A DNA stretch of 64,000 nucleotides, from the NCBI RefSeq assembly GCF_057098645.1, contig NZ_CM169472.1; one strand, given 5' to 3'. Below the pieces are notes generated by a model that saw only the letters and a program-made list of their open reading frames with translations, searched no databases and was not told the origin of the DNA. The position numbers and the translations under genes are program-made. Below are positions 12,479-58,573 of the stretch, piece after piece. Position 1 is the stretch's first letter. The number at the start of each line of letters is the position of its first letter.

Positions 12479-12756
12479 CGTTGATGGACTTTTTGTGCTG
12501 TTTACTACTGTTTATTTTTATTAATTCACTGAAATAAATAAGAAAAAACAATTTGTATTTCACTATAATTTTTTCCAGCTCCTTCCAGAGCGTTTTAAAG
12601 CTATCTGGCGCTGATATACAAAAAATGCACAGCCATTGTAAGGCTGCCGGAACAAATCCCCCCTGTTGCGTCTGCCAAAAATATTCACAAAATAAAGCGC
12701 TACCCGAAGCCGGACGGACTTATCCGGTGCTGTATGGACATTAACGAGGTAGCCCG

Positions 12757-13023
12757 ATGCAAGCTGTTTTTTCTTCCCCGTCTCCCGCCCCTGTGACGCC
12801 ACTGATGCCGCTGCCGGACATCACGCAGGAGCGTTTTTTACGTCTGCCGGAAGTGATGCACCTGTGCGGCCTGTCACGCTCGACCATCTATGAACTCATC
12901 CGTAAGGGGGAATTTCCGCCGCAGGTGAGTCTTGGCGGTAAAAATGTGGCCTGGCTGCACTCTGAAGTCACCGCATGGATGGCCGGACGCATTGCCGGAC
13001 GCAAACGGGGGTACGACGCATGA
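12757..13023 (+). CDS. AlpA/Vis-like small DNA-binding regulator
   Basis: 88-aa ORF containing [27 protein letters not shown], an AlpA/Vis-type HTH. Confidence 0.6.
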
Positions 13024-13610
13024 TAGTGCCCGCTCTGCAAAAACTCCCTTTTTCTGGCTTGCCTTTTTCCGGCATTTGCGGATATAGTTTTTCCGCTGCC
13101 GCAAAATCGGCAGCCGGGCGTGAGAACCCGTGTAGCTCGAAGGCGACATATGACGCGCCATGCGTCTTTTTTTGTGTCGCAATCAACGCCACAGAGCGCC
13201 AGATTATGGTGTGGCGTGTGGTTTGCCGTGCAGGTATGATCCTGTTCGCAATCGCATGTTATGCCACTGAGTCAATGGTAGCTCAGGCGGGGCAGCCTCC
13301 GGGCTGGCCGGTATTCTTCGAGGCCGGTATTCTCACCCCCGTCTGGGCTATCGCCATCGAGCGTGAGAACTCCGGCGATAGCAGTTATTTGCTACTCGAA
13401 GGAGGCTGCCTTATGGCTACAACCCTTACCCCCTCACACCCTGAATTTGTCTTTGTGTTTGCGGCTGTCCGTCGCGCAGACCGTCATCCCCGTATCTGCA
13501 TGCTTCGCACCGTCGCCGGTGATGAACGCAGCGCCCGCCGTTCCCTTGTCCGTGACTATGTGCTCTCCCTTGCTGCCCGTCTGCCGGTGGTGGAGGTGTC
13601 CCGTGCGTAA
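13020..13610 (+). CDS. Hypothetical protein of the P4-like element
   Basis: 196-codon ORF whose ATG overlaps the vis-like stop (ATGA coupling); no recognisable motif. Confidence 0.35.
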
Positions 13611-13915
13611 TAAAAGCCCCTCAGACCGTCTCAGCGCGTCATGACGCCCGTGAACACCTCAGCATTGAGGCTTACCATAAGCTCAACCGCGCCAGCGCCG
13701 TATCCCGGTTTGTTGCAAAATGGCATCTGAATCGATCGCAGTTTGGCATTCGAATCGATCATGATTTGGCATCCATCTCCGATCACAGTTTGGCATCACA
13801 ATCGATCACGATTTGGCATGCTTCCGATCATTGATTGGCATCCTGCCAGTCACTCCGGGAATTAACTCTTTTCACCACAGTCTCCATTGCCGTGTTTAAA
13901 CCAGTGGAGACGTCA

Positions 13916-15481
13916 ATGTCCAGAAAGAGAAAATCCAGGAGCACTATGGAAACCTGTTTTAAGATCCTTCAGCTCAAGTTCGACAAGAAGCTGACTAACC
14001 GTTGTATCGGACTGACGTTACACATCAGCGCCTCAACCGTTTTTGAGGTTCTTGCCCGCTTCAAAGCCTCTTCTCTGTCATGGCCATTACCTGCTGATAT
14101 ATCCCATGACACGCTGGAGAAACTCATTTTTCCGCCCAAAGACACCTTTGCATCAGAGCTTGTAATGCCTGACATGTTGTACTTCGATACGGAAATGAGA
14201 AAACCAGGTGTGACGCGGCAACTGTTGTGGATGGAATACAAGGCACAGGCGGGTAACAAAGCGATGGGATACTCGCACTTCTGCCGTTGCTACCGGGAGT
14301 GGAAAAAAACGCGACGTCTCTCCATGCGCCAGGAGCATCGTGCCGGCGAAAAGCTTTTTATCGACTTCTGTGGTCCTACGGTTCCTGTTATTAATCCGGA
14401 CACCGGTGAGATACGCCGCGTGGCAATCTTCGTGGCCGTAATGGGGGCGTCCAACTATACCTACGTTGAAGCGTGCGAAGGTCAGGACATGATGTCATGG
14501 TTAAATGCCCACAGCCGTTGCCTGACCTTCCTGGGCGGCGTACCGAAGCTGCTCATCCCCGATAACCTCAGAAGCGCAGTGAAAAAGGCCGATCGATATG
14601 AGCCTGTCATCAACGACAGTTATCAGGCACTGGCTGAGCACTATGGCACGGTTATCATCCCGGCCCGACCACGCAAACCTAAAGATAAACCAAAAGCAGA
14701 AAACGGCGTCCTCATCGTTGAACGATGGCTTCTTGCCCGCATCCGTAATGAAACCTTCCACACGCTCAGGGCGCTGAATGCGCGCCTTAGGGAGTTACTG
14801 ACAGACATGAATAACCGGCCAATGAAGGGGTACGGCAATCAAACCCGTGCAGAACGCTTCCGCATACTGGATGCGCCAGCACTCTCTCCGCTGCCTCTGG
14901 CACCTTATGAATACACGGAATACAAAGCTGTGAAGGTTGGCCCTGACTACCACGTTGAATATGCCCGTCACTGGTACTCCGTTCCACACGAACTGGTCGG
15001 TCAGCGTCTGTCACTGAAGGCGGGGCAGTCGGTGGTACAGCTCTGGCACAAGGGGCAGTGTGTGGCGCAACATCCGCGCAGCACACATGAATATAAACAC
15101 ACAACCAATCCGCTTCACATGCCAGAGCGCCACCGGCAGCACGGGACATGGACACCGGAACGCCTGATCGAGCAGGGAAAACGTACGGGCCCGTCCACAG
15201 GCCGGGTGGTTGAATCCATGCTGAAGGCAAAACCCCATCCGGAACTGGCTTATCGTGCAGTTCTGGGGCTGCTGGCACTTCAGAAAAAATACGGCCCGGA
15301 ACGGCTGGAAAAGGCCTGTTACGTTGCCCTGCACTATAACGCCCCTGACAGACGCTTTATCGACAATCTGCTGCGTCACCATCGGGAGAACCTGGAGCTT
15401 CCATTATCCCGCCAGGGCGAACAACATCCGGCATATGCTTCAGAGCATGAAAACCTGCGTGGTCCGGGCTACTACCACTGA
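13916..15481 (+). CDS. istA: IS21-family transposase IstA
   Basis: MSRKRKSRSTMETCFKILQLKFDKKLTNRCIGLTLHISASTVFEVL... N-terminal HTH followed by a DDE integrase-like core; GGAG RBS. The ORF track extends to 13835, but the internal ATG is the better start. Confidence 0.8.
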   Translation: MSRKRKSRSTMETCFKILQLKFDKKLTNRCIGLTLHISASTVFEVLARFKASSLSWPLPADISHDTLEKLIFPPKDTFASELVMPDMLYFDTEMRKPGVTRQLLWMEYKAQAGNKAMGYSHFCRCYREWKKTRRLSMRQEHRAGEKLFIDFCGPTVPVINPDTGEIRRVAIFVAVMGASNYTYVEACEGQDMMSWLNAHSRCLTFLGGVPKLLIPDNLRSAVKKADRYEPVINDSYQALAEHYGTVIIPARPRKPKDKPKAENGVLIVERWLLARIRNETFHTLRALNARLRELLTDMNNRPMKGYGNQTRAERFRILDAPALSPLPLAPYEYTEYKAVKVGPDYHVEYARHWYSVPHELVGQRLSLKAGQSVVQLWHKGQCVAQHPRSTHEYKHTTNPLHMPERHRQHGTWTPERLIEQGKRTGPSTGRVVESMLKAKPHPELAYRAVLGLLALQKKYGPERLEKACYVALHYNAPDRRFIDNLLRHHRENLELPLSRQGEQHPAYASEHENLRGPGYYH

Positions 15482-15497
15482 CAGAAGGAACAACAGT

Positions 15498-16253
15498 ATG
15501 AGTGATAACCTGTTAAACAAACTGACCCAACTGAAACTCCCGGCGATGGCCGGGAGCCTGATACGGCAGCGGGAAACGCCTCAGACCTACGACGAACTGT
15601 CGTTCGAGGAAAGGCTGACGCTGCTGGTTGATGACGAGCTTCTGAGCAGGGAAAACAGCCGTGTGGCACGGTTGAGAAAAAATGCCGGCCTGAAATACCA
15701 GGCAACACCGGAAGGGCTGCGCTATCCGGCCTCAAGAGGTCTGCGGGCTGAACAGATGAGAGAACTGCTGAACGGCCACTACATAACCCACAGGAAAAAC
15801 CTGCTGATAACCGGTCCGACAGGATGTGGCAAGAGCTGGATAGCCAATGCGCTGGGCGAACAGGCATGTCGACAGAAACACAGCGTCCGGTACTGTAGAA
15901 CCGGGCGATTACTGGAACAACTGGCTCAGGGACGTGTTGATGGCAGCTGGCTGAAATATCTGAAACAGTTGCAAAAAATACAGGTTCTAATCCTGGACGA
16001 TCTGGGGCTGGAACAGTTAAGTAACGCCCAGTGTAATGACCTTCTGGAGCTCATAGAGGATCGTTACGGACAAAGCAGCACGATAGTGGTAAGCCAGTTC
16101 CCGGTAGATAAATGGCATGGTCTGATGGAGAACCCAACAACAGCAGATGCCATCCTGGACAGACTGGTACATAACTCACACCGAGTGGTCCTTCAGGGAG
16201 AGTCACTGAGGAAAAATCCCCCGGTAGTGGAAAGCAGCGAAAAAACGCGTTAA
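15498..16253 (+). CDS. istB: IS21-family helper ATPase IstB
   Basis: MSDNLLNKLTQLKLPAMAGSLIRQRE...; Walker A GPTGCGKS and Walker B ILDDLG. Confidence 0.85.
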   Translation: MSDNLLNKLTQLKLPAMAGSLIRQRETPQTYDELSFEERLTLLVDDELLSRENSRVARLRKNAGLKYQATPEGLRYPASRGLRAEQMRELLNGHYITHRKNLLITGPTGCGKSWIANALGEQACRQKHSVRYCRTGRLLEQLAQGRVDGSWLKYLKQLQKIQVLILDDLGLEQLSNAQCNDLLELIEDRYGQSSTIVVSQFPVDKWHGLMENPTTADAILDRLVHNSHRVVLQGESLRKNPPVVESSEKTR

Positions 16254-17451: not shown

Positions 17452-19785
17452 ATGAAAATGAACGTAACCGCCACCGTCAGCCATGCGCTCGGCCACTGGC
17501 CGCGTATTCTCCCGGCGCTGGGGATTCAGGTGCTGAAAAACCGTCATCAGCCCTGTCCGGTCTGTGGCGGGAGTGACCGCTTCCGTTTTGATGACAGGGA
17601 GGGGCGCGGCACCTGGTACTGCAATCAGTGTGGTGCCGGTGACGGCCTGAAACTGGTTGAAAAGGTGTTTGGTGTCTCCCCGTCCGACGCGGCCGCAAAG
17701 GTGGCTGCCGTGACCGGCAGCCTGCCCCCGGCTGACCCGGCAGTGACGGCTGCCGCCGGTGCTGAAACAGACGCTGCCCGGAAGAACGCCGCCGCACTGG
17801 CACAAACCCTGATGGCGAAAACCCGTCCCGGAACCGGTAACGCCTACCTGACCCGCAAGGGCTTTCCCGGCCGGGAATGCCGGATGCTGACCGGCACACA
17901 CAGATCCGGTGGCGTGAGCTGGCGTGCCGGTGACCTTGTGGTGCCACTGTATGACGACAGCGGCGAACTGGTTAACCTTCAGTTAATCAGTGCTGACGGC
18001 CGTAAGCGCACCCTGAAAGGCGGACAGGTCAGGGGCACCTGTCACACCCTTGAAGGACAGAATCAGGCCGGAAAACGTCTGTGGATAGCGGAGGGATACG
18101 CGACCGCACTTACCGTACATCACCTGACCGGTGAAACGGTGATGGTGGCGCTTTCTTCCGTGAACCTCCTTTCTCTGGCCAGCCTTGCCCGGCAGAAGCA
18201 TCCGGCCTGTCAGATTGTCCTTGCCGCAGACCGTGACCTCAGCGGTGACGGCCAGAAAAAAGCCGCCGCAGCCGCAGATGCGTGTGAGGGCGTTGTTGCC
18301 CTGCCGCCGGTCTTCGGTGACTGGAATGATGCCTTCACGCAGTACGGCGGGGAGGCCACCCGTAAGGCCATTTACGATGCCATCCGGCCACCGGCTGAAA
18401 GCCCGTTCGACACCATGAGCGAAGCAGAGTTTTCCGCCATGAGTACCAGCGAAAAGGCCATGCGTATCTATGAGCATTACGGCGAGGCGCTCGCGGTTGA
18501 TGCCAACGGCCAGCTTCTGTCCCGTTATGAAAATGGTGTCTGGAAGGTGCTGCCGCCACAGGACTTTGCCCGGGATGTGGCCGGGCTGTTTCAGCGTCTG
18601 CGCGCGCCGTTCTCCTCCGGGAAGGTGGCCTCCGTGGTGGACACCCTGAAGCTGATTATTCCGCAGCAGGAAGCCCCCTCCCGCCGCCTGATTGGCTTTC
18701 GTAACGGCGTGCTCGACACGCAGAACGGCACGTTCCACCCGCACAGTCCGTCACACTGGATGCGCACCCTGTGCGATGTGGATTTCACCCCGCCGGTGGA
18801 CGGTGAAACGCTGGAGACCCACGCCCCCGCGTTCTGGCGCTGGCTTGACCGTGCCGCCGGTGGCCGTGCGGAAAAACGCGACGTGATTCTGGCCGCACTG
18901 TTTATGGTGCTGGCAAACCGCTATGACTGGCAGCTCTTTCTGGAGGTGACCGGTCCCGGCGGCAGCGGCAAAAGTATCATGGCCGAAATAGCCACCCTGC
19001 TGGCCGGTGAGGATAACGCCACGTCGGCCACTATTGAGACGCTGGAATCCCCGCGTGAACGTGCCGCGTTAACTGGCTTCTCACTGATACGCCTGCCGGA
19101 CCAGGAAAAATGGAGCGGCGACGGTGCCGGACTCAAGGCCATCACCGGCGGCGATGCGGTGTCCGTGGACCCGAAATACCGGGATGCGTACTCCACGCAT
19201 ATCCCGGCGGTGATTCTGGCCGTGAACAATAACCCGATGCGCTTCACCGACCGCAGCGGCGGCGTGTCACGCCGGCGGGTGATTATTCACTTCCCGGAAC
19301 AGATAGCCCCGCAGGAGCGCGACCCGCAACTTAAGGACAAAATCACCCGCGAGCTGGCGGTCATCGTGCGTCACCTGATGCAGAAGTTCAGCGACCCGAT
19401 GCTCGCCCGGTCACTGCTTCAGTCCCAGCAGAACTCAGACGAGGCACTGAACATCAAACGGGATGCCGACCCGACGTTTGATTTTATCGGCTATCTGGAA
19501 ACCCTGCCGCAGACCAGCGGCATGTATATGGGGAACGCCAGTATCATCCCGCGTAATTACCGTAAATACCTCTATCACGCCTATCTGGCCTACATGGAGG
19601 CAAACGGCTACCGGAATGTACTCAGTCTGAAAATGTTCGGGCTGGGGCTGCCGGTGATGCTGAAGGAATACGGGCTGAATTACGAGAAGCGCCATACCAA
19701 ACAGGGGATACAGACCAACCTGACGCTGAAAGAGGAAAGCTACGGCGACTGGCTGCCAAAATGTGACGACCCTGCAACAACCTGA
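17452..19785 (+). CDS. alpha: P4 alpha-like primase-helicase
   Basis: 777-aa ORF; N-terminal zinc-binding primase region (CPVCGGSDRFRFDD..WYCNQCG), central P-loop GPGGSGKS; same length as P4 alpha. Confidence 0.85.
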   Translation: MKMNVTATVSHALGHWPRILPALGIQVLKNRHQPCPVCGGSDRFRFDDREGRGTWYCNQCGAGDGLKLVEKVFGVSPSDAAAKVAAVTGSLPPADPAVTAAAGAETDAARKNAAALAQTLMAKTRPGTGNAYLTRKGFPGRECRMLTGTHRSGGVSWRAGDLVVPLYDDSGELVNLQLISADGRKRTLKGGQVRGTCHTLEGQNQAGKRLWIAEGYATALTVHHLTGETVMVALSSVNLLSLASLARQKHPACQIVLAADRDLSGDGQKKAAAAADACEGVVALPPVFGDWNDAFTQYGGEATRKAIYDAIRPPAESPFDTMSEAEFSAMSTSEKAMRIYEHYGEALAVDANGQLLSRYENGVWKVLPPQDFARDVAGLFQRLRAPFSSGKVASVVDTLKLIIPQQEAPSRRLIGFRNGVLDTQNGTFHPHSPSHWMRTLCDVDFTPPVDGETLETHAPAFWRWLDRAAGGRAEKRDVILAALFMVLANRYDWQLFLEVTGPGGSGKSIMAEIATLLAGEDNATSATIETLESPRERAALTGFSLIRLPDQEKWSGDGAGLKAITGGDAVSVDPKYRDAYSTHIPAVILAVNNNPMRFTDRSGGVSRRRVIIHFPEQIAPQERDPQLKDKITRELAVIVRHLMQKFSDPMLARSLLQSQQNSDEALNIKRDADPTFDFIGYLETLPQTSGMYMGNASIIPRNYRKYLYHAYLAYMEANGYRNVLSLKMFGLGLPVMLKEYGLNYEKRHTKQGIQTNLTLKEESYGDWLPKCDDPATT

Positions 19786-20125: not shown

Positions 20126-20321
20126 TTTTTTATGTGGATAAAAGATGCACTGGTTTGGATCCGAGCTACGGATCCAAACTTACTGATTAAAAATGATTTA
20201 ACTTTCCGATTTATTGATGGGCTGAAAATAGATTGGTCAGAAAAACAGTGGGGGCACAAAAGGGGGCATATTTCATTGTTGTGTTTTATTATTTGTTTTT
20301 TATCATTAACTTATTTTGATG

Positions 20322-20343
20322 TTTGAGTCCGGCCTTCGCACCA
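20322..20343 (+). repeat. attR: partial duplicate of the leuX 3' end
   Basis: tttgagtccggccttcgcacca versus leuX ttcgagtccggccttcggcacca. Confidence 0.7.
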
Positions 20344-21020: not shown

Positions 21021-23069
21021 ATGTATGGAAAAATGGAAAAAGTTTATGATACCACTAGAATTAGTAATCTTGCTAACGACCCGAAACAGTTTTGTTCTTT
21101 TTTTTGTGAGTACATAAAAAGAGATGATATTAGTATAGATATCGCCTTGGATGTGCTGAGAATATCTTCCATCTATTATAATAGATTTTCAGTTCAGACT
21201 GAAGTTGAGTATAACAATACATTCAAAAAATGTATTAATGAGCTAGTAAACTCATTTCCTGATAACATTGAACTAATTTCTGAGTTCGAGAGTCAATGTA
21301 AAATTATGCATGATATAAATAATTCTTTCTTTGCGGCTACAAAATGTGCTGGTATTTGGCGTGAAAATACAAAAAAATCACATGCATTAATACTTAATCT
21401 CATCATGTTTTGTGAGATGTTTTTATCATCATTATCATCCTTGGTTGTGGTCAATGATCCTAAAAAAATGAAGAGGATTTTTCCATTATTTATCGTTTCT
21501 GAAAATATTAATATTCATGCTGAACCTGATATCGAATATTTTCGAGTTATCGATAGGGCATTTGATGAGGTAGCCAATTACACCGGAAGAATATTTTCTT
21601 ATTTACGGACTCATGAGCCATTGAAACTAACTTCTTGTGTGAATAAACAAACCTTGCTTTCAATGGGAGGGTACCTTAATGAGTGGAATGTTTTTGACTC
21701 ATTAAGCAGAGTAAGAGACTTTTTCAGACTAAGTAGTGCAGTATTTACAAAATTGGATAATAACATTTACTCTCTTGAGGTTGATAGTTTTTGTTTATAC
21801 CGAGATTATGAGATTGCAAGAAATAGACTAATGATGAGAGCGTCACATCTATATAGCGAAGTTCATGAATTTAGTAACAAACATTTTCATCTAAATAGTT
21901 GGGTAAAGGATCATATGCCATCTTACTTAAATTCTGATGGCGTTTTTAGCTCATTTCATCTAAGCGAGTTGGAAAATATGTCTCCTGATGACCTTCATGA
22001 AGAATATGGGAATATATCATTATTTAATTGGGTGCACGCTTATCAATGTTTAGTCGAGTTATCTAAAGAAGAAATGAGCAAAAGATTTTCATCGACAAAA
22101 CCTATACCCCTACAGTTGGATCGCTGGCTGATCATAAAAAGCCGTGAGAGTTGGTTATCATTCTTTCAACGTAAGGGGATTGCAGCAGATGCAGCAAAAA
22201 AACTGATAGATTATTTTACCTTCAATTCAAAATCACATGATCTTAATGATTGCCCATTTATTCCCTGTATGGACGGTTTATGCTTAATGCCTGCATTCAT
22301 AGCAAATAGCTCAGTGACTCGCTCTCTAATGTCATTATTTGGTTCCAAAAAAATTTCTCAAGCAAGTAAAGGGCGATTTCATGAGCAACAATTTATAAAA
22401 CAAGTTCGTGATGCGGGGATTAAAGCTTCTCCAATTGATGCTCATGCTAATTATCAGTGCGATTGCGTGATTCTCCTGGATGATTGTTTGATTTTTACAG
22501 AACTAAAATCAAATGGTCAACCAATATATTATGGTAAGTACTATCAGCAAGTGTGTAACATCGTTGGAGATAGCTCATTAATACATGATCATAATAATAA
22601 ATTTATGCGTTCTTATTTTCAACAAATAAATCGAACTTCTGAACATTATCTTAATCATCTTGATGTGATCATTAAAGAATTCGAACTACCATCAACATGG
22701 CAACCCAAAGGTGTGTATAAGCTTATTGTTACTACAACTATGCTCGGTGGGAAATATCATGTGGATGATACATATGTAGCGGACAAATATGCATTATCTA
22801 GTTTTTTTCAACGAATACCTGGAGTGATATATCAAACAAATGAAAATGGAGAAATGGCGAAAAATATCATTGATGGGTTTGAGTGTTGCGAAGGGGAAAT
22901 CACTATCGATAAGTTTATAGATTATCTTTCCTCTTTGCCCGGTATTAATGCTGTACGTAAAAATATACAAAAATTAACTTATAGTGTTCGATTTAATGAA
23001 AAACTAGTCCATCACCCTTATTATGATTCTTGGGCTTTTGGCCCATATATTCGTAAGGGAAATGATTAG
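21021..23069 (+). CDS. Hypothetical 682-aa protein with a possible PD-(D/E)xK nuclease-like motif; orphan accessory gene
   Basis: Long AT-rich ORF; no housekeeping similarity recognised; QCDCVILLDDCLIFTELK segment resembles a PD-(D/E)xK core; strong terminator immediately downstream. Confidence 0.5.
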   Translation: MYGKMEKVYDTTRISNLANDPKQFCSFFCEYIKRDDISIDIALDVLRISSIYYNRFSVQTEVEYNNTFKKCINELVNSFPDNIELISEFESQCKIMHDINNSFFAATKCAGIWRENTKKSHALILNLIMFCEMFLSSLSSLVVVNDPKKMKRIFPLFIVSENINIHAEPDIEYFRVIDRAFDEVANYTGRIFSYLRTHEPLKLTSCVNKQTLLSMGGYLNEWNVFDSLSRVRDFFRLSSAVFTKLDNNIYSLEVDSFCLYRDYEIARNRLMMRASHLYSEVHEFSNKHFHLNSWVKDHMPSYLNSDGVFSSFHLSELENMSPDDLHEEYGNISLFNWVHAYQCLVELSKEEMSKRFSSTKPIPLQLDRWLIIKSRESWLSFFQRKGIAADAAKKLIDYFTFNSKSHDLNDCPFIPCMDGLCLMPAFIANSSVTRSLMSLFGSKKISQASKGRFHEQQFIKQVRDAGIKASPIDAHANYQCDCVILLDDCLIFTELKSNGQPIYYGKYYQQVCNIVGDSSLIHDHNNKFMRSYFQQINRTSEHYLNHLDVIIKEFELPSTWQPKGVYKLIVTTTMLGGKYHVDDTYVADKYALSSFFQRIPGVIYQTNENGEMAKNIIDGFECCEGEITIDKFIDYLSSLPGINAVRKNIQKLTYSVRFNEKLVHHPYYDSWAFGPYIRKGND

Positions 23070-23092
23070 AGCAATTTATTATATAGTCCATG

Positions 23093-23134
23093 TTATTCAC
23101 TGATTATATTATTGATAATATAATCAGTGAATAA
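23093..23134. terminator. Long perfect hairpin between the 682-aa gene and downstream minus-strand ORFs
   Basis: ttattcactgattatatta-ttga-taatataatcagtgaataa followed by a T7 run. Confidence 0.65.
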
Positions 23135-23691
23135 CTCTAATTTTTTTAATGTTGGGGGGTAGCCTGAAATTGAAATTGGTACTACGGAACGGTATGATCA
23201 TATCGCATCAAAATATCAAGGTAGTGATGATTTTCTACGCAACGATCCAGAAACGTGGATTTTATCATCACCATAAGCAATGGCAGCGACAACACCATCA
23301 ATTTCTATATCAAAGGTGGTGAAATGAATTAGAAAATTGTTTATTTAATCCATTAGCGATAAGTTTTATTGTTATTTAGCCGAGATATATTCCATTGAAA
23401 AAAGTAAATTGGCACTGATATTATATCAAATGGGAATAATCCTTTTGTAAATAAGCTGAGGAATGTGTTAATTCACATCCAGCGCCTTATAAACCGCATC
23501 AACCGGTTCTGAGTAAAAACTTACCTGAAACTTGGTAAACAACTCTGCCGGAACTGTTGGAATATCCATAGCCGAGGATATCGGCAACAGAACACGTTTT
23601 GCGCCGCTATCGAAGGCGAGTTGTAAACTAGCGGCAAGATCCTGCACTGATTATGTCAGCAATATTGAACATACTGCGATAGTTATCAACC

Positions 23692-24564
23692 TCACCCCCT
23701 AAAAACCTCTTTCCGATGCCACTCTACAAACACCTCATAAGGGTAATTTTTACGCACCTGCGGCAACGTAATAGTTTTCCCGTCAAAATCCCAGAATAAT
23801 CTCTCAACGATCCCTCCGCCGTTTACCGCATCTGATACCAGTACCCGCATATTTTCGTCCAGGCCAATCGATCCTTTATCAAAGGCTTTATGGTGAATTG
23901 CGCAAAGCGCCAGGCCATTAGGAATTTCACAAGGACCGCCGTGCTGTTTCCATTTTATATGCGCCGCTTCCAGCGCGACGGTGGTGTCGTCGTGGCGCAT
24001 ATTAAAGCCACATATCGCGCACTGGTAGTTATAAGCGCGTAATACATTTTTGCGAAATAACGGGTCGCGCTGTTTACGGATTTGCTGGAGATCAAAACCC
24101 AGCTCGTCAGCGATTTCTTCCTGAATACTCTCGGTGAAGTGCGCTTCGAGTATCTGTTGCGCCAGAGTATTGATGAGTTTTTTATTGCCGATTACCAGGG
24201 CGTAGTGCTGTTCATCGAAACCGCCTGCAACGTGGTATTCGTTCAGTTCCTTCACTGGCGGTTGTCGGCTGCTCCCTGCTGTTGAGCAACGCTCGGCATT
24301 GTGTAATTGCCAGAATCCGTCGCCTTGTAATCGCCAGAACGGCATATCAGGTCGGTACTGTGAACGCTGTGGCCCAAAACGTTCCAGTAAACTGTGCAGA
24401 GGTTCGTAGATTTCCGATCCATAATCGAAAAGGCGCGGATGTCCATTCAGGTATCCCGCTAATACGTATAGCAGTAACAATGGTTTATGCGGCGCGCGCT
24501 GTTCACCCTTGTGCCAAATTTTTATGTTGGCAATTGCCTGCTGTAGCGATTTACTGGAAGCCAT
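23692..24564 (-). CDS. HNH endonuclease-domain protein with an N-terminal domain of unknown function
   Basis: C-terminal HNH motif YNYQCAICGF...ALEAAHIKWKQHGGPCEIPNGLALCAIHHKAFD; start chosen at MASSKSLQQ (ATG 24562-24564). The ORF track allows an N-terminal extension to 24720 that overlaps the nanM-derived fragment. Confidence 0.7.
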   Translation of the reverse strand: MASSKSLQQAIANIKIWHKGEQRAPHKPLLLLYVLAGYLNGHPRLFDYGSEIYEPLHSLLERFGPQRSQYRPDMPFWRLQGDGFWQLHNAERCSTAGSSRQPPVKELNEYHVAGGFDEQHYALVIGNKKLINTLAQQILEAHFTESIQEEIADELGFDLQQIRKQRDPLFRKNVLRAYNYQCAICGFNMRHDDTTVALEAAHIKWKQHGGPCEIPNGLALCAIHHKAFDKGSIGLDENMRVLVSDAVNGGGIVERLFWDFDGKTITLPQVRKNYPYEVFVEWHRKEVFRG

Positions 24565-24641
24565 TGATATCCCAGGCAGTGAAATAATTGCAATCATGCT
24601 CGCAAATTTTCTGCTGTTCAAGCCTGCAAGTGAAGATCCAT

Positions 24642-24914
24642 TGCTGTGTTGAGGGATCAAAAGACAACAAAAACTTATTGAAGAAATAATCTTCTGCTTT
24701 TTTGTCGAAATAATAGGCATTGATCTTGTCTATAGCTGCTAAATATTCTCCAGCCTCGTTGAGATCTTCAAAATAGCCATTGAAGATGTTCTGGTTAACA
24801 CCGCCAGTAACATAAGCCTTGCCGCTGTGTACAAAAGTCACATTACCCGCCATGCCCATCGGCGCGTGCGACATCAATTTATTGTTTTATTCATTGTGAC
24901 TGTCTCCTGTCTAC
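24642..24914 (-). pseudogene. Rearranged nanM fragment (internal codons fused to the nanM 5' leader)
   Basis: About 240 bp nearly identical to nanM 57959-58200 (MSHAPMGMAG..FDPSTQQW) joined directly to about 30 bp matching the nanM RBS/leader region 58541-58573; lacks the first about 148 codons and the 3' part. Confidence 0.7.
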
Positions 24915-25103
24915 AAAGCTTTAACCTTCACCCGTATGAGGGAAGTTTTAAGTATGAGGCGAACCATAGCATATGCCTTTATACCTATTACACCATAAAG
25001 ATAGACAAGTTATGCCATAAACTACTTTTGTAATTTGAGTCACAAATCAGGGAAGTTTTATTTATCTTCCGTGAAAGTCTTAACTTTCACGGAGTGTTAG
25101 AAT

Positions 25104-26207
25104 TTACAAAGTTGCTGGCGTAAAGGCTCCGGTTTGTATTTCTTTAACCAGCTCACCCACGGTATATATTCTCCATCCTTCGACTTCGGCGGGAGTAAGG
25201 TTAACTGCAATTTTAAGGCCTGGCCATGCAGCTTCTACGGTTGCAATAATTTCATGTTCTGAGTTTTGAAGATCTAACCCAGGAACAGGAGGTTGAAAGC
25301 CTTTATGTTGCATCATATTAATATCACCATGCACTGATGGATCAGTCAGGTCATATATTTCATTCCAGGATTCTGCTTTTAATAACCCTTGTTGGGAACG
25401 TAAACGTTGAATGATAGCCATCTCAGCTTGGGTAACGAATATACCTTCGTGGAGGGGCTGTTTTCGATGGCAATCCTTGCACAGAACAAGAAGGTTTTCA
25501 TGGTGATTATCATATTTGATGCCATTTTTATGATGGACATGGCACAAGTTTTTGGCGGTTGATAAATTCACGCCACAATCATTACAAACATAATTGGCCT
25601 TTTCTCGTATTTCTTTAGATATTTCCTTCCAGTTTTCAACATACCCACTATTTGTTTTGTCATAGATACCCTTAGGCATATGACGAAAACAGGTACTATA
25701 ATCTGAAAAAAACTCATTTAATGAGAATGATTTAAAAATCTCTCTTTTTCGTTGTTTATCAATACTTCCTTTATAATTAAGTCGTTCGAGGCAATTCATA
25801 CATACCCGTAAATCAACATCCTGGCTCCGACCTGAACCATCATCAATTTCGAATAAACCATCTATGCGGTTAGTTGCATGATACCTTTCAAATCGATTTT
25901 TATGGCGCATTTCATCAAGAGTTCTGCACCAGGCAATATGAAAACGTTTTCCTTTTTCGCCATCTACGATAGCCGCATCATAACGCCCTGAATGGTCCCG
26001 AATATATAAAAGAACCTGGCGGCCATGATAAGAGATAAGCCCGCTACCAGGGTCAAGATCTTCGATACTAACTTCTTTACCCGTGGATAACTCAATATCT
26101 ATAGGATCAAAGTCAATAGGGGATTCATCCAGAAAAAAATCGACTCCTTCTGGTAACATTTTCTTCCCTAATTGAATAAGTTCTGAAAGGTCGATAGATA
26201 ATTTCAT
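25104..26207 (-). CDS. zorE: ZorE-like HNH endonuclease (Zorya type II)
   Basis: 367-aa ORF with HNH motif CNDCGVNLSTAKNLCHVHHKNG..NLLVLCKDCH; third gene of a MotA-like/MotB-like/HNH operon. Confidence 0.65.
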   Translation of the reverse strand: MKLSIDLSELIQLGKKMLPEGVDFFLDESPIDFDPIDIELSTGKEVSIEDLDPGSGLISYHGRQVLLYIRDHSGRYDAAIVDGEKGKRFHIAWCRTLDEMRHKNRFERYHATNRIDGLFEIDDGSGRSQDVDLRVCMNCLERLNYKGSIDKQRKREIFKSFSLNEFFSDYSTCFRHMPKGIYDKTNSGYVENWKEISKEIREKANYVCNDCGVNLSTAKNLCHVHHKNGIKYDNHHENLLVLCKDCHRKQPLHEGIFVTQAEMAIIQRLRSQQGLLKAESWNEIYDLTDPSVHGDINMMQHKGFQPPVPGLDLQNSEHEIIATVEAAWPGLKIAVNLTPAEVEGWRIYTVGELVKEIQTGAFTPATL

Positions 26208-26210
26208 CTC

Positions 26211-26918
26211 TTACTCCTGAATAATCTTTCTAATCTGCAACTCGGCATTTGTTACAACTTTGAAGGTGACACGACGAGAGCGATTAGGATCCTCCTTGCC
26301 GGTTTTATCAAGAATGGGATGTGCAGATGAATAACCTACTGCGGCAAATTTACTTTTAACCCATTGTTGGTGTGTCGCGATATTTTTTATGTCATAAACG
26401 TATTGTAATACTGCACGTGTACGACCTTGCGATAGTGCCATATTATTAAAATAAGCAATATCAGGATTCGTTGTTCCTGTCCAGTCAGTACTTGTGTGAC
26501 CTTCAATGCGGACTTCAGTAATATGTTCCTGATAATTATCTAGAACTTTTAGGTAGCGAGGAAAGAAATCGTCAAGAATGAGTTTAAACTTTGGTTTTAG
26601 CTCTGTGCTTCCTAAGCCAAATAAAACATCCGGTGATTTAAATCGAACCTCCAGAGTCTGTTTATCGATCTCTGCATCCCAGTCTTGTAAATCCTTTGCA
26701 AACTCAATATCCAGAGCATTATAAAGCTGTAACTGAGCATTCTCGTAGGCTACGGCAACTTCTTTAATTTTTTCTTTTTCAATACGTACGTAGTGCATAT
26801 AAGCAATAGATATGAACATAAAAACCATCATCAGCCCTGCCATTAGGTCTGACATGGATACCCAATGTTCATTATCTTGATCTTTTTTAGGTAATTGTTT
26901 CCCTATAATCTTATCCAT
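26211..26918 (-). CDS. zorB: ZorB-like MotB/OmpA-family protein (Zorya)
   Basis: 235 aa; N-terminal single TM helix with a preceding Asp (SMSDLMAGLMMVFMFISIAY); C-terminal OmpA-like peptidoglycan-binding region. Confidence 0.7.
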   Translation of the reverse strand: MDKIIGKQLPKKDQDNEHWVSMSDLMAGLMMVFMFISIAYMHYVRIEKEKIKEVAVAYENAQLQLYNALDIEFAKDLQDWDAEIDKQTLEVRFKSPDVLFGLGSTELKPKFKLILDDFFPRYLKVLDNYQEHITEVRIEGHTSTDWTGTTNPDIAYFNNMALSQGRTRAVLQYVYDIKNIATHQQWVKSKFAAVGYSSAHPILDKTGKEDPNRSRRVTFKVVTNAELQIRKIIQE

Positions 26919-26924
26919 GATCGA

Positions 26925-28577
26925 TTACCCGCGATGTTTATTAGCAGAAATTAATGCTTGTAACTGCCCCATAACTATTTGGTAATCTTTAATAAGTTTT
27001 TCATAGTTACCGACAAAACCTTTGCTGATTGAAAGCAGAGCATTACCTAATGATTGCATTTCACGGTTCATTTCACGTTCAGTTGCTTGCTCAAAAGCAT
27101 GTAACTGCTCGTTGATGGATAGAGCAAATTTTTCAATTGATTCTCTGACTTGAGAAGTCAGCCCTGCACTTGCCTTATCAAATGATGTCTGGATTGAATC
27201 AAACATATTATCGGCATTACTGGATAGTTGATGGTTAATCTTTTCACCAGTCTTACTGAACATATCAATCACATTCGTCGTATTTTGTTCCATATTTCTA
27301 TGCAATTCTTTCGAGTGCGACTCTAGTGATTTCAGGAATTCTTCACCACTTTGTTTCATTTCAGTAATTGTTTCACCTAACGTGCTGGTTAGGGTTTCGG
27401 AGGAATTGCTGACATCATGTGCCATCGAGGCAAATGCTTGTTGTGTTTGGGTAACCGATTGTCTGAATCCTTCGGTACCTTCATCCAGGGCAACGCGCAT
27501 TGAATCTGCATTAAGAAGTATTTGCTGGCTGGTTTGCTCAAGAGATGCACTAACATTTGCAGCTCCGGATTTCAGCAGTTCACCCACTTCAGCCATTTTG
27601 TTCTGTATTTCAGGTAATACGGTTGTAGCTTTATCGCGGATGGCGACAAAGGTTTCTAAATGGCGGGAGAGTTCGCTGATTTGATGTTGGTTCACCTGAA
27701 GCACTTCACGCAGTTCAGACATAGCCAGAGGAATTTCTTTACATTCTTCCCAAATCCCTGCAACCGCAGTTTTTGTTTCAACCAGGGACTCGACACTTTG
27801 TTGATATTGTTCTGACATCTGCTCAATTTGCGTTTTATAATTTCCCTGCCACTCAACAAGTTTTTTTACAGAGGCATCAAGAGCTTTAAAGTTTTCACCA
27901 AACTGTTCAGTTAAATTTTGATTAAAATCAATAATGACTTGTCGCAAAGCATCAATAATTTGTTCTGTAGCACCTTTTGCCATTAGATCTGCAAATTGTT
28001 CAAGTTGTTCCCAAAGCTTATTACTGAAATGAGTGTGATTAGCTAATTGTGCCTGCGAGGAATCGCTAATATCAGTACGTAGTAATTTTATTTGAGCAAT
28101 AAGAGAACCTTCACTATCACCGTTAATACCCGAGACTAATTTAGTCAGAGTCTGGTTCTGCTCTTTTAATTCATGATAGATATGTTCAGGTGTAACAGAT
28201 TCAGGGTTATTTTCTGCTAACGCACTTCGTTTATTGGCAAAAAAGAAAGCATCCATTCCATTAAATAAAATGGCAAAAAACATACCTACAATGCTTGTAA
28301 TGAATGCTGTTTTTAGGCCACCTAATAATACGGGGATGCTGGTATCAATACTTTCGGTATTAAAATTGAGTAAACCAATAATAATACCAATGAAAGTACC
28401 CAGAATACCTAATGCCCCCATTAAGGTTGGAGCATATTCTCTAAACTTACTATGTATATTTTTTTTGTCACACCACCACGCTGATAAAAATACGAATATA
28501 ACAGCCCAGATGAAAATATTGGTGATCAGTGTAGAGTCTATCGATTGAAACAACTGCTCAAAAAGCTGCGCTAACAT
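26925..28577 (-). CDS. zorA: ZorA-like MotA/ExbB-family membrane protein with long coiled-coil tail (Zorya)
   Basis: N-terminal TM helices (..LMGALGILGTFIGIIIGL.., ..LKTAFITSIVGMFFAILF..) followed by about 400 aa of Q/E-rich predicted coiled coil. Start chosen at MLAQLFEQ (ATG 28575-28577); the ORF track allows 28634. Confidence 0.7.
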   Translation of the reverse strand: MLAQLFEQLFQSIDSTLITNIFIWAVIFVFLSAWWCDKKNIHSKFREYAPTLMGALGILGTFIGIIIGLLNFNTESIDTSIPVLLGGLKTAFITSIVGMFFAILFNGMDAFFFANKRSALAENNPESVTPEHIYHELKEQNQTLTKLVSGINGDSEGSLIAQIKLLRTDISDSSQAQLANHTHFSNKLWEQLEQFADLMAKGATEQIIDALRQVIIDFNQNLTEQFGENFKALDASVKKLVEWQGNYKTQIEQMSEQYQQSVESLVETKTAVAGIWEECKEIPLAMSELREVLQVNQHQISELSRHLETFVAIRDKATTVLPEIQNKMAEVGELLKSGAANVSASLEQTSQQILLNADSMRVALDEGTEGFRQSVTQTQQAFASMAHDVSNSSETLTSTLGETITEMKQSGEEFLKSLESHSKELHRNMEQNTTNVIDMFSKTGEKINHQLSSNADNMFDSIQTSFDKASAGLTSQVRESIEKFALSINEQLHAFEQATEREMNREMQSLGNALLSISKGFVGNYEKLIKDYQIVMGQLQALISANKHRG

Positions 28578-28788
28578 TTTGATACCTGTGTAAATAATGG
28601 ATAGTTGTAATCGTTTAAAAAATAAACAAAACACACATAATTTATATGGTTAAGTTCGGTGTAGCGCTCATGATTGTAACAAGTTTTTTCGAGATATAAA
28701 TGATTTGTCTCATTTTTAGCGAGTTCATCGGGTTGAGCTTTTTTATGATGATAGTAACCTGTTACGAATTGTATCAAAGGAAGGCAGG

Positions 28789-57447: not shown

Positions 57448-58554
57448 TTAGTTTTGTACTGTGACTTTATTATCCTTCACAGAGATCAAAACTGAATCCG
57501 TCACCGCTTTGCCGCCTGCAGTTTCACCGCCAATAATCAATAGACTATTATTCCAGGGCAATGATACTCCGTAAGCCCGACCTTGCGATAATTCACCCGA
57601 TTTATCCCATTTCCCGTTATGCCAAAGATGAATATCAGTGCTATATGATTTTTTCAGGCCTTCATGCGCATAGTTCTTACCGTTTTGGTAATTTTCTCGT
57701 GAACCTTTGAATCCGGCCCCTCCGGCAAATATAAGAGAATCATTGCTTATCCCCGCAAAACCGCCAGCGACGCCATCTGGTGATGAGACGGGAGCAAGCT
57801 TATTCCATTTTAAATTATTACCGGTGAAATCAAGTTCAAATACGGCATCCGTTCGCAATCCTGGTTTGGCTTCGCCATTAATAAGCCAGGTTTTATCACC
57901 TTTATTCACAACCGCCGCACCAGCCGTCCCGTACCAGGGAGATTCGCCAGCGTAACTCCATTGCTGTGTAGAGGGATCAAAAGACAACAGAAACTTATTA
58001 AAGAAATAATCTTCTGCTTTTTTGTCAAAATAGTGTGCATTGATTTTATCTATAGCGGTTGAATCTTTTCCAGTTTCGTTGAGATCTTCAAAATAGCCAT
58101 TGAAGATATTCTGGTTAACACCGCCAGTAACATAAGCCTTGCCGTTGTGTACAAAAGTCACATGGCCCGCCATGCCCATCGGCGCGTGCGACATCAATTT
58201 AACCCAGCTATTGGTTTTGGGGTTGTATTTGTGTACGTCATTAAATACCTGAGTCAAGCCCTCGCTGTTTTTGCCAATGCCGCCAAACACATACAGATTG
58301 CCATCAATAAATGCAGAGGTTGCTTGATCTCTTGGTCCGCCAGGGAATGCAGCTAACGCTGTCCATTTTTTATCTTTGGCCTGTGTATCCAGCTTGTACC
58401 ATGCCGTACCTGCGCTACCTAAACCAATGTAGACAGTGTCGTTATCAATTGCTCCGGTACCACTTTTAAATGGCACAGGAGTTTCCGGTAATACAGACGC
58501 GTTTGCGGCAAATGAAGCCATCATGATAGCAAGCGCCGTTATTGTTTTATTCAT
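57448..58554 (-). CDS. nanM: N-acetylneuraminate mutarotase NanM (Kelch-repeat periplasmic protein)
   Basis: MNKTITALAIMMASFAANASVLPETPVPFKSGTGAIDNDTVYIGLGSAG... with signal peptide and Kelch repeats; ATG 58552-58554. Confidence 0.9.
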   Translation of the reverse strand: MNKTITALAIMMASFAANASVLPETPVPFKSGTGAIDNDTVYIGLGSAGTAWYKLDTQAKDKKWTALAAFPGGPRDQATSAFIDGNLYVFGGIGKNSEGLTQVFNDVHKYNPKTNSWVKLMSHAPMGMAGHVTFVHNGKAYVTGGVNQNIFNGYFEDLNETGKDSTAIDKINAHYFDKKAEDYFFNKFLLSFDPSTQQWSYAGESPWYGTAGAAVVNKGDKTWLINGEAKPGLRTDAVFELDFTGNNLKWNKLAPVSSPDGVAGGFAGISNDSLIFAGGAGFKGSRENYQNGKNYAHEGLKKSYSTDIHLWHNGKWDKSGELSQGRAYGVSLPWNNSLLIIGGETAGGKAVTDSVLISVKDNKVTVQN

Positions 58555-58573
58555 TGTGACTGTCTCCTGTCTA

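Follow-up and report, generated by a model that had tools for sequence, protein, structure and literature searches.

A 59-codon frame beside an HNH restriction gene in an Escherichia coli defence island, read as a relic of the BREX gene brxL

Does a short open frame lying just behind a restriction gene encode a protein of its own, or is it what remains of a gene that has been lost? We met this question at a 59-codon frame on the minus strand of the window (the whole stretch of DNA that was analysed, 64,000 nucleotides of contig NZ_CM169472.1 in RefSeq assembly GCF_057098645.1), which runs from a GTG at 23647-23645 to a TAA at 23470-23468 in both the ORF listing and the sequence. A sequence-only reading had placed the frame at 23468-23647, and we find it there, with the same 59-residue translation; the gap of about 44 bp that it gave to the neighbouring HNH gene is likewise correct, the HNH stop codon (TGA, 23694-23692) lying on the same strand and 44 nt upstream. 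It had also described the GTG as immediately following an in-frame TAA—the TAA is indeed in frame, at 23653-23651, but one TCA codon separates the two.

The length of the frame by itself carries no weight: 207 ORFs of 59 aa or more turn up in the window under the same mechanical rule, and 59 codons are therefore no more than chance would give. It is the homology to BrxL that goes beyond chance, and the reading that we consider very probable (roughly 0.95) is that the frame is a non-functional relic of the 3' end of brxL, left behind when a deletion of ~14.4 kb removed a BREX system from this E. coli defence island. RefSeq (PGAP) already places a pseudo-CDS over exactly 23468..23647, labelled 'hypothetical protein' or 'peptidase' and qualified as 'incomplete; partial in the middle of a contig; missing N-terminus', while brxL as a name for the stub is absent from the RefSeq records examined. 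The feature is an ordinary pseudogene scar of a known kind, already flagged in RefSeq, and no new gene; the practical consequence is that the interval is better labelled a brxL pseudogene fragment than called as a protein.

Homology to the end of BrxL

Two protein models place the peptide at the very end of BrxL. NCBIfam TIGR02653 ('protease Lon-related BREX system protein BrxL') matches it over model positions 617-675 of 675 (E=3.8e-24), and the PADLOC BrxL model over positions 623-680 of 680 (E=1.7e-19). At the DNA level, the stub matches the 3' terminus of each of three intact E. coli brxL genes at 166-170 of 180 nt (92-94%), in a collinear alignment that ends at the same stop codon, with 23468..23647 (minus strand) equivalent to brxL codons 636-694 plus the stop codon; 56 of the 59 residues are shared with E. 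coli BrxL. The more divergent allele of strain 755 (88.5%), tried as a source of the stub, proved no closer, at 170 of 180 nt and with the same three amino acid differences, and the Ile, Glu and Asp found at these three residues occur in none of the three intact E. coli alleles compared.

How much of the protein is left can be judged from its structures. The stub aligns to residues 621-679 of the solved BrxL 8emc and corresponds approximately to the last 59 residues in 8emc and 8emh (8eil being the structure of the C-terminal domain); it makes up about the last third of the Lon-like C-terminal domain, 59 of roughly 180 domain residues, whereas nothing is left of the MCM-like N-terminal domain or the AAA+ ATPase, nor of the other two thirds of the Lon-like domain. 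Intact brxL has 694 codons, of which ~10% are left here (59 + 11 codons) and 90% are gone. Measured against the full-length BrxL architecture—three domains, about 680-700 aa and a curated whole-protein cut-off of 628 bits in TIGR02653—the stub falls far short, scoring 85 bits. Pfam Lon_C (PF05362) matches the peptide weakly (profile positions 159-200 of 205; 11.1 bits vs a threshold of 21.1), and the stub contains no complete Lon S16 proteolytic domain above the Pfam gathering score. The impression that the frame looks like the C-terminal end of a larger protein was therefore well founded, since models and DNA alike identify it as the last 59 codons of brxL. The same reading had held that a lack of homologues would count against it; homologues of the 59-residue peptide do exist, in BrxL.

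The homologous remnant extends beyond the ORF, covering 214 nt with its degraded upstream part vs the 180 nt of the frame. Local alignment recovers a further piece of brxL, codons ~605-616, in the 34 nt upstream of the GTG (23648..23681, minus strand), where 28 of 34 positions are identical to intact brxL, a value reached in 0 of 2000 shuffles. (A five-way MAFFT alignment across the junction had misaligned the HNH flank with brxL and so masked this homology; we relied on local pairwise alignments instead.) Read in frame, the upstream piece gives IAVCSILLT*S against IALCSILLAKP in intact BrxL—the TAA at 23653-23651 is a nonsense codon inside the relic, at a position where intact brxL has AAA (Lys), and the GTG 'start' is the codon for BrxL Val636, downstream of that nonsense codon. 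Identity is lower in these 34 nt (82%) than in the remainder of the stub (94%).

Between the two pieces, 57 nt (19 codons, 617-635, in frame) are missing from the stub relative to all three intact alleles. Copies of a direct repeat at brxL nt 1849 and 1906 bracket the lost segment, and one copy, GT(A/G)CAGGA, survives at 23640..23647 (minus strand), marking the internal deletion; in one allele (L013) the same repeats form a perfect 11-mer, CCGGTGCAGGA. Loss between direct repeats is the signature of what would be a slippage deletion.

The deletion junction and its carriers

The frame lies in a variable island between the tRNA-Leu gene leuX and nanCMS/fim; a recent review counts this region as hotspot #37 among 41 E. 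coli defence islands, the most heavily occupied of them, and places BREX there in ~9% of isolates (PMC12707154). Strain Br_190_kylling carries, at the same locus and in the same orientation, the order fim-nanC-nanM-nanS-HNH'-PT-restriction HNH-membrane protein-brxA-brxB-brxC-pglX-pglZ-brxL-...-leuX, and an intact BREX system thus occupies the space between the same HNH gene and leuX. The window keeps the HNH gene (97.6% identical to that of Br_190_kylling) and then jumps to brxL nt 1815, implying a deletion of 14,436 bp relative to that strain. No other BREX genes are present in the window, where blastn of the complete BREX locus matches only a 181-nt stub; rather than brxA, brxB, brxC, pglX and pglZ, the neighbours of the brxL sequence are the HNH gene and a relic of a PLD-like gene. 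Of the two origins that had been proposed for the frame, the remnant of a deleted gene is the one borne out, with a brxL tail stranded beside the HNH gene by loss of a BREX-1 operon.

The HNH gene itself is intact (23692..24564, minus strand; a RefSeq CDS of 873 nt for a phosphorothioated-DNA-binding restriction endonuclease) and matches NCBIfam NF045808 (E=1.5e-131) and Pfam HNH_2. Its mechanical ORF is longer, at 342 aa, and reaches 52 codons past the RefSeq start at 24564 (24565-24720, minus strand) into a nanM fragment; the NF045808 alignment begins no earlier than residue 58, in favour of the shorter start given in RefSeq. Past the stop codon, a short 3' flank (GGTTGATAAC, 23682..23691, minus strand) leads up to the deletion junction at 23682/23681, 10 nt beyond the HNH stop. 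The window and two other islands, one in which the HNH gene neighbours McrBC (L005) and one in which it neighbours BREX (L006), are identical up to GGTTGATAA(C/T) and then diverge at once.

We found no IS element at the junction and no convincing microhomology, the overlap being at most 1 nt. CCGCGC, which occurs both in the HNH flank of the BREX strain and in brxL, was considered as junction microhomology and is at odds with the join that is seen. For the HNH-side boundary we considered, and rejected, an att-type repeat of the leuX 3' end, there being no copy near 23682 and a sole distal copy at 20321-20343. The join appears blunt and illegitimate (non-homologous), as judged from the aligned junctions.

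The 3' side of the HNH gene is a place of repeated rearrangement: four unrelated modules—the brxL relic, McrBC, a membrane protein plus BREX, and a DEAD-box module (window 23682-23694; L005, L006, L015 and L016)—abut within 0-10 nt of its stop codon. The conserved HNH tail, TGA-GGT-TGA-TAA, holds three in-frame stops, and modules break off just as sharply at the brxL stop codon; in O157:H7, the break falls within the HNH gene and leaves a shorter CDS. Boundaries of this kind could possibly reflect repeated deletion trimmed to the edge of retained genes, or a preference for the site. Strain Jnd12 (L009) shows that the stub's HNH neighbour is itself being lost in some lineages, with a 1-nt deletion at the HNH 3' end making the gene a pseudogene.

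On its other side, the stub is followed by a second decayed element. The interval 23370..23467 (minus strand) is a former brxL-to-PLD intergenic spacer, ~85% identical to that of strain 025542-1 with a 19-nt indel, and 23185..23369 (minus strand) holds the decayed 5' end (~62 codons) of a PLD-like gene, recognised by tblastn and by DNA alignment to positions 12723-14072 of an island of the same flank type (L003). In this relic the start ATG has become ATA, the sequence breaks off at 23185, and the matches to the intact gene fall in three different frames. Islands of the L003 type, as in strain 025542-1, carry the PLD-like gene directly after intact brxL, and the intact protein matches DrmC/ZacB-type PLD models in PADLOC. 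The whole of 23185-23681 is thus what survives of a BREX-PLD island, a fossil of ~500 bp cut back at either end.

The scar is not peculiar to this genome. Among 5,426 complete E. coli genomes, 339 have the stub/HNH junction with the PLD-relic flank, and a further 21 have the identical junction followed by a 35-codon relic of another gene that can follow brxL; these ~360 carriers (~6%) compare with 345 genomes in which at least 80% of brxL is present, scar and intact brxL now being of roughly equal frequency. All of the carriers examined (n=11, including the window) have the same junction, the same 57-nt deletion and the same TAA, from which we infer that the scar probably has a single origin. 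Each of the two downstream flanks is also found beside intact brxL, and for one junction to sit beside two flanks (in 339 and 21 genomes), recombination or replacement must have followed later. Had a crossover fallen within the stub, donor-type SNPs would be expected, and none are seen in the stub of VCSW5, which differs from that of the window at one site. BREX loss at this hotspot is recurrent, because two further classes of brxL stump also exist, one of 330 nt beside an IS3 fragment and one of 89 nt beside an IS1 that deleted fimI through BREX; the system has gone at least three times independently, and the stumps vary in length accordingly.

These observations can be assembled into an order of events. 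A type 1 BREX operon with brxL as its terminal gene would once have sat between the HNH restriction gene and the leuX side. One illegitimate deletion of ~14.4 kb would then have taken the membrane-protein gene, brxA, brxB, brxC, pglX, pglZ and the first ~1,814 nt of brxL, so that codon ~605 of brxL came to follow the base 10 nt beyond the HNH stop. Further decay of the remnant would have come later, through the 57-nt slippage deletion, the change from Lys to stop and amino acid substitutions. The 59-codon 'ORF' is simply the stretch that remains open between the nonsense codon and the natural stop of brxL.

Constraint, expression and competing explanations

If the stub still acted as a protein, its sequence should bear the mark of constraint. 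Among ten carriers, a small sample, the segregating changes in the stub ORF number 2 synonymous and 7 non-synonymous, whereas the adjacent HNH gene has 31 of the former and 13 of the latter (Fisher p=0.019; p=0.009 with the upstream 33 nt added). The stub changes include G15D in the conserved DSGAK motif, and in strain XH993 a premature stop, E47* (Glu47 to TAA), reduces the PGAP call to 141 nt. The frame is open in nine of the ten carriers, as expected under neutrality for 180 nt at no more than 2% divergence. Over their last 180 nt, the three intact alleles are 6-8% apart in DNA, yet the last 100 aa that they encode are identical, whereas the stub has three fixed amino acid differences from all of them. 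Selective constraint on the stub is relaxed, and the lesions that it carries go beyond truncation—the in-frame TAA and the 57-nt deletion, to which XH993 adds E47*. Lack of conservation of the frame in related genomes had been named as evidence against the frame, and with a non-synonymous excess and the XH993 stop, it is indeed not conserved as a frame.

Signals for expression point the same way. There is no purine-rich, Shine-Dalgarno-like sequence in the 22 nt before the GTG (GTTCAATATTGCTGACATAATCA); a promoter-like match at 23689-23661 scores 9/12, and shuffled sequence yields promoter-like and terminator-like matches at least as often as this region does. We found no minus-strand terminator-like site within the relic or between it and the HNH gene, and because none lies between them, the HNH transcript probably reads through; transcription of the relic would then be passive, its sequence forming the 3' tail of the HNH mRNA. 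The stub itself is likely untranslated and without a role of its own, to judge from its sequence features. The suggestion of a small co-transcribed ORF with its own role found no support, given the missing ribosome-binding site, the identity of the GTG with Val636, the non-synonymous bias and the XH993 stop.

A relic that does nothing as a protein could yet have been kept for its use as DNA or RNA, whether as a 3' UTR or stabiliser of the HNH mRNA or as a patch of homology for recombination with incoming BREX or other cargo, an idea that we regard as unlikely. It draws on the identical junction with two downstream flanks, each of which also occurs beside intact brxL, and on the abundance of the scar (about 360 genomes vs 345 with intact brxL), but the VCSW5 stub, with one site different from the window and no donor-type SNPs, does not look like the product of such exchange. 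Folding offers a further argument, the relic folding somewhat better than shuffled sequence (z=-2.55; 2 of 100 shuffles as good), yet this value is unremarkable for sequence that was once coding. No Rfam family matches within 23150-23930, and the only matches at E<=1 within 23000-24000, to a palindrome at 23085-23142 (miRNA models) and to 23931-24000, score far below the gathering scores; a terminator-like element is also lacking in the relic. Nucleotide diversity per site is 0.050 in the relic and 0.050 in the HNH gene, and this equality is compatible with a relic that hitch-hikes beside a retained gene.

A translated micro-protein, co-transcribed with the HNH gene and active, for example, against BrxL ring assembly or on transcription, is very improbable. 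The arrangement would permit it, since only 44 nt and no predicted terminator separate the frame from the intact gene ahead of it on the same strand, and the frame stays open in nine of ten carriers. In its favour, too, the C-terminal domain of BrxL mediates ring assembly (PMC12707154), and an over-expressed, engineered 707-807-nt brxL 3' remnant changed global transcription in Salmonella (PMC9009780). That fragment, however, had the whole of Lon_C (about 235-270 aa) and a strong cat promoter, whereas the stub has the last 59 residues only, starts with GTG and lacks a Shine-Dalgarno sequence. The ratio of 2 synonymous to 7 non-synonymous changes, the premature stop in XH993, the Gly-to-Asp change in a conserved motif, and the nonsense codon and 19-codon deletion in the upstream part of the relic all argue further against it. 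By analogy with the Salmonella fragment, the stub might be weakly translated, for instance by re-initiation after the HNH stop, and its tail or RNA might perturb incoming BrxL rings or host transcription; we give this scarcely any credence, although if true it would mean that ~6% of E. coli genomes keep a defence-gene fossil that works as a modulator, not a neutral scar. An evolutionarily meaningless chance ORF, which the 207 comparable frames in the window might suggest, is dismissed by the BrxL homology (E=3.8e-24), 94% DNA identity and collinearity to the stop codon of brxL. The non-functional brxL relic is the reading that fits all four lines together: homology, gene order shared with intact BREX, lesions and relaxed constraint.

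The surrounding island and comparison with known systems

The remainder of the window shows further turnover in the same island. The leuX gene (tRNA-Leu CAA) lies at 5923-6007 and is followed by a 14.3-kb P4-like satellite that is not in the closest O145 references; strain RM9872 lacks this extra element, and ARAGORN finds no leuX near ~20.3 kb, where the far end of the satellite is formed by a 23-nt repeat of the tRNA 3' end (20321-20343), imperfect by one substitution and the loss of one G. The satellite comprises an integrase (6160-7446), a cargo slot with a Type II restriction enzyme (7912-8730) and a dcm-type methyltransferase (8768-10021, minus strand), an IS21 istA/istB insertion (13835-16253) and a primase-helicase (17452-19785).

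A gene for a 678-aa hypothetical protein (21033-23069, plus strand; 33% GC), with no significant match in Pfam, NCBIfam or PADLOC, separates the relics from the leuX side. It accompanies the PLD-relic scar in several strains, is interrupted by a stop codon in two or more (19AR0646 and MLI105), and may be an uncharacterised defence-island gene. Just past its stop codon, and 50 nt from the point at which the PLD-like relic is truncated, a perfect palindrome with a 20-bp stem and a T-run (23092-23135), close to the module junction, looks like a terminator.

Directly upstream of the HNH gene, 24637-24924 holds a 245-nt internal fragment of nanM and a 36-47-nt nanC-nanM piece, duplicating (92-94%) part of the real nanM/nanC at 57957-58584. 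The two nanM/nanC copies bracket a ~33-kb block with Zorya type II (zorE, 25104-26207; zorB2, 26211-26918; zorA2, mechanical ORF 26925-28634), a gene of the STY4851/ECs_5259 family with giant DEAD/DEAH helicases, and a UvrD-like helicase. Beyond it, relative to RM9872, an IS5-type element (60093-61286, with a 326-aa InsH-like transposase at 60162-61142) sits in the nanC-fimB intergenic region.

Among known systems, the S16 C-terminal domain of Lon protease (PF05362) resembles the stub weakly, over the tail of the domain only, and most of the proteolytic fold is absent here. Another parallel is the engineered brxL 3' remnant of the Salmonella StySA BREX system (Zaworski et al. 2022), which is the only reported brxL tail with a phenotype and for which the authors favoured a translated C-terminal (Lon_C) domain (PMC9009780). 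Like the stub, it is a brxL 3' fragment without the 5' part in a leuX-anchored island; unlike the stub, it spans 707-807 nt, has full Lon_C and is driven by a cat promoter, whereas the stub, about four times shorter and without most of Lon_C, has 180 nt (214 with the upstream piece) and neither promoter nor ribosome-binding site. That paper (PMC9009780) is a lead for the low-probability translated reading rather than support for a function of the stub.

The other E. coli brxL stumps are likewise 3'-terminal fragments from BREX loss that are annotated as partial pseudogenes, the 330-nt stump as 'S16 family serine protease' and the 89-nt stump as 'peptidase'. They differ in abutting IS3 or IS1, as IS-mediated deletions, whereas the junction in the window is IS-free and accompanied by the additional 57-nt slippage deletion. 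BrxL of type 1 BREX itself is the Lon-related AAA+ protein whose intact gene, in other strains, occupies the same chromosomal position and orientation as the stub. The modest value of the stub is that of a historical marker, recording a lineage that once had BREX at the leuX hotspot and probably lost it by a clean ~14.4-kb deletion.
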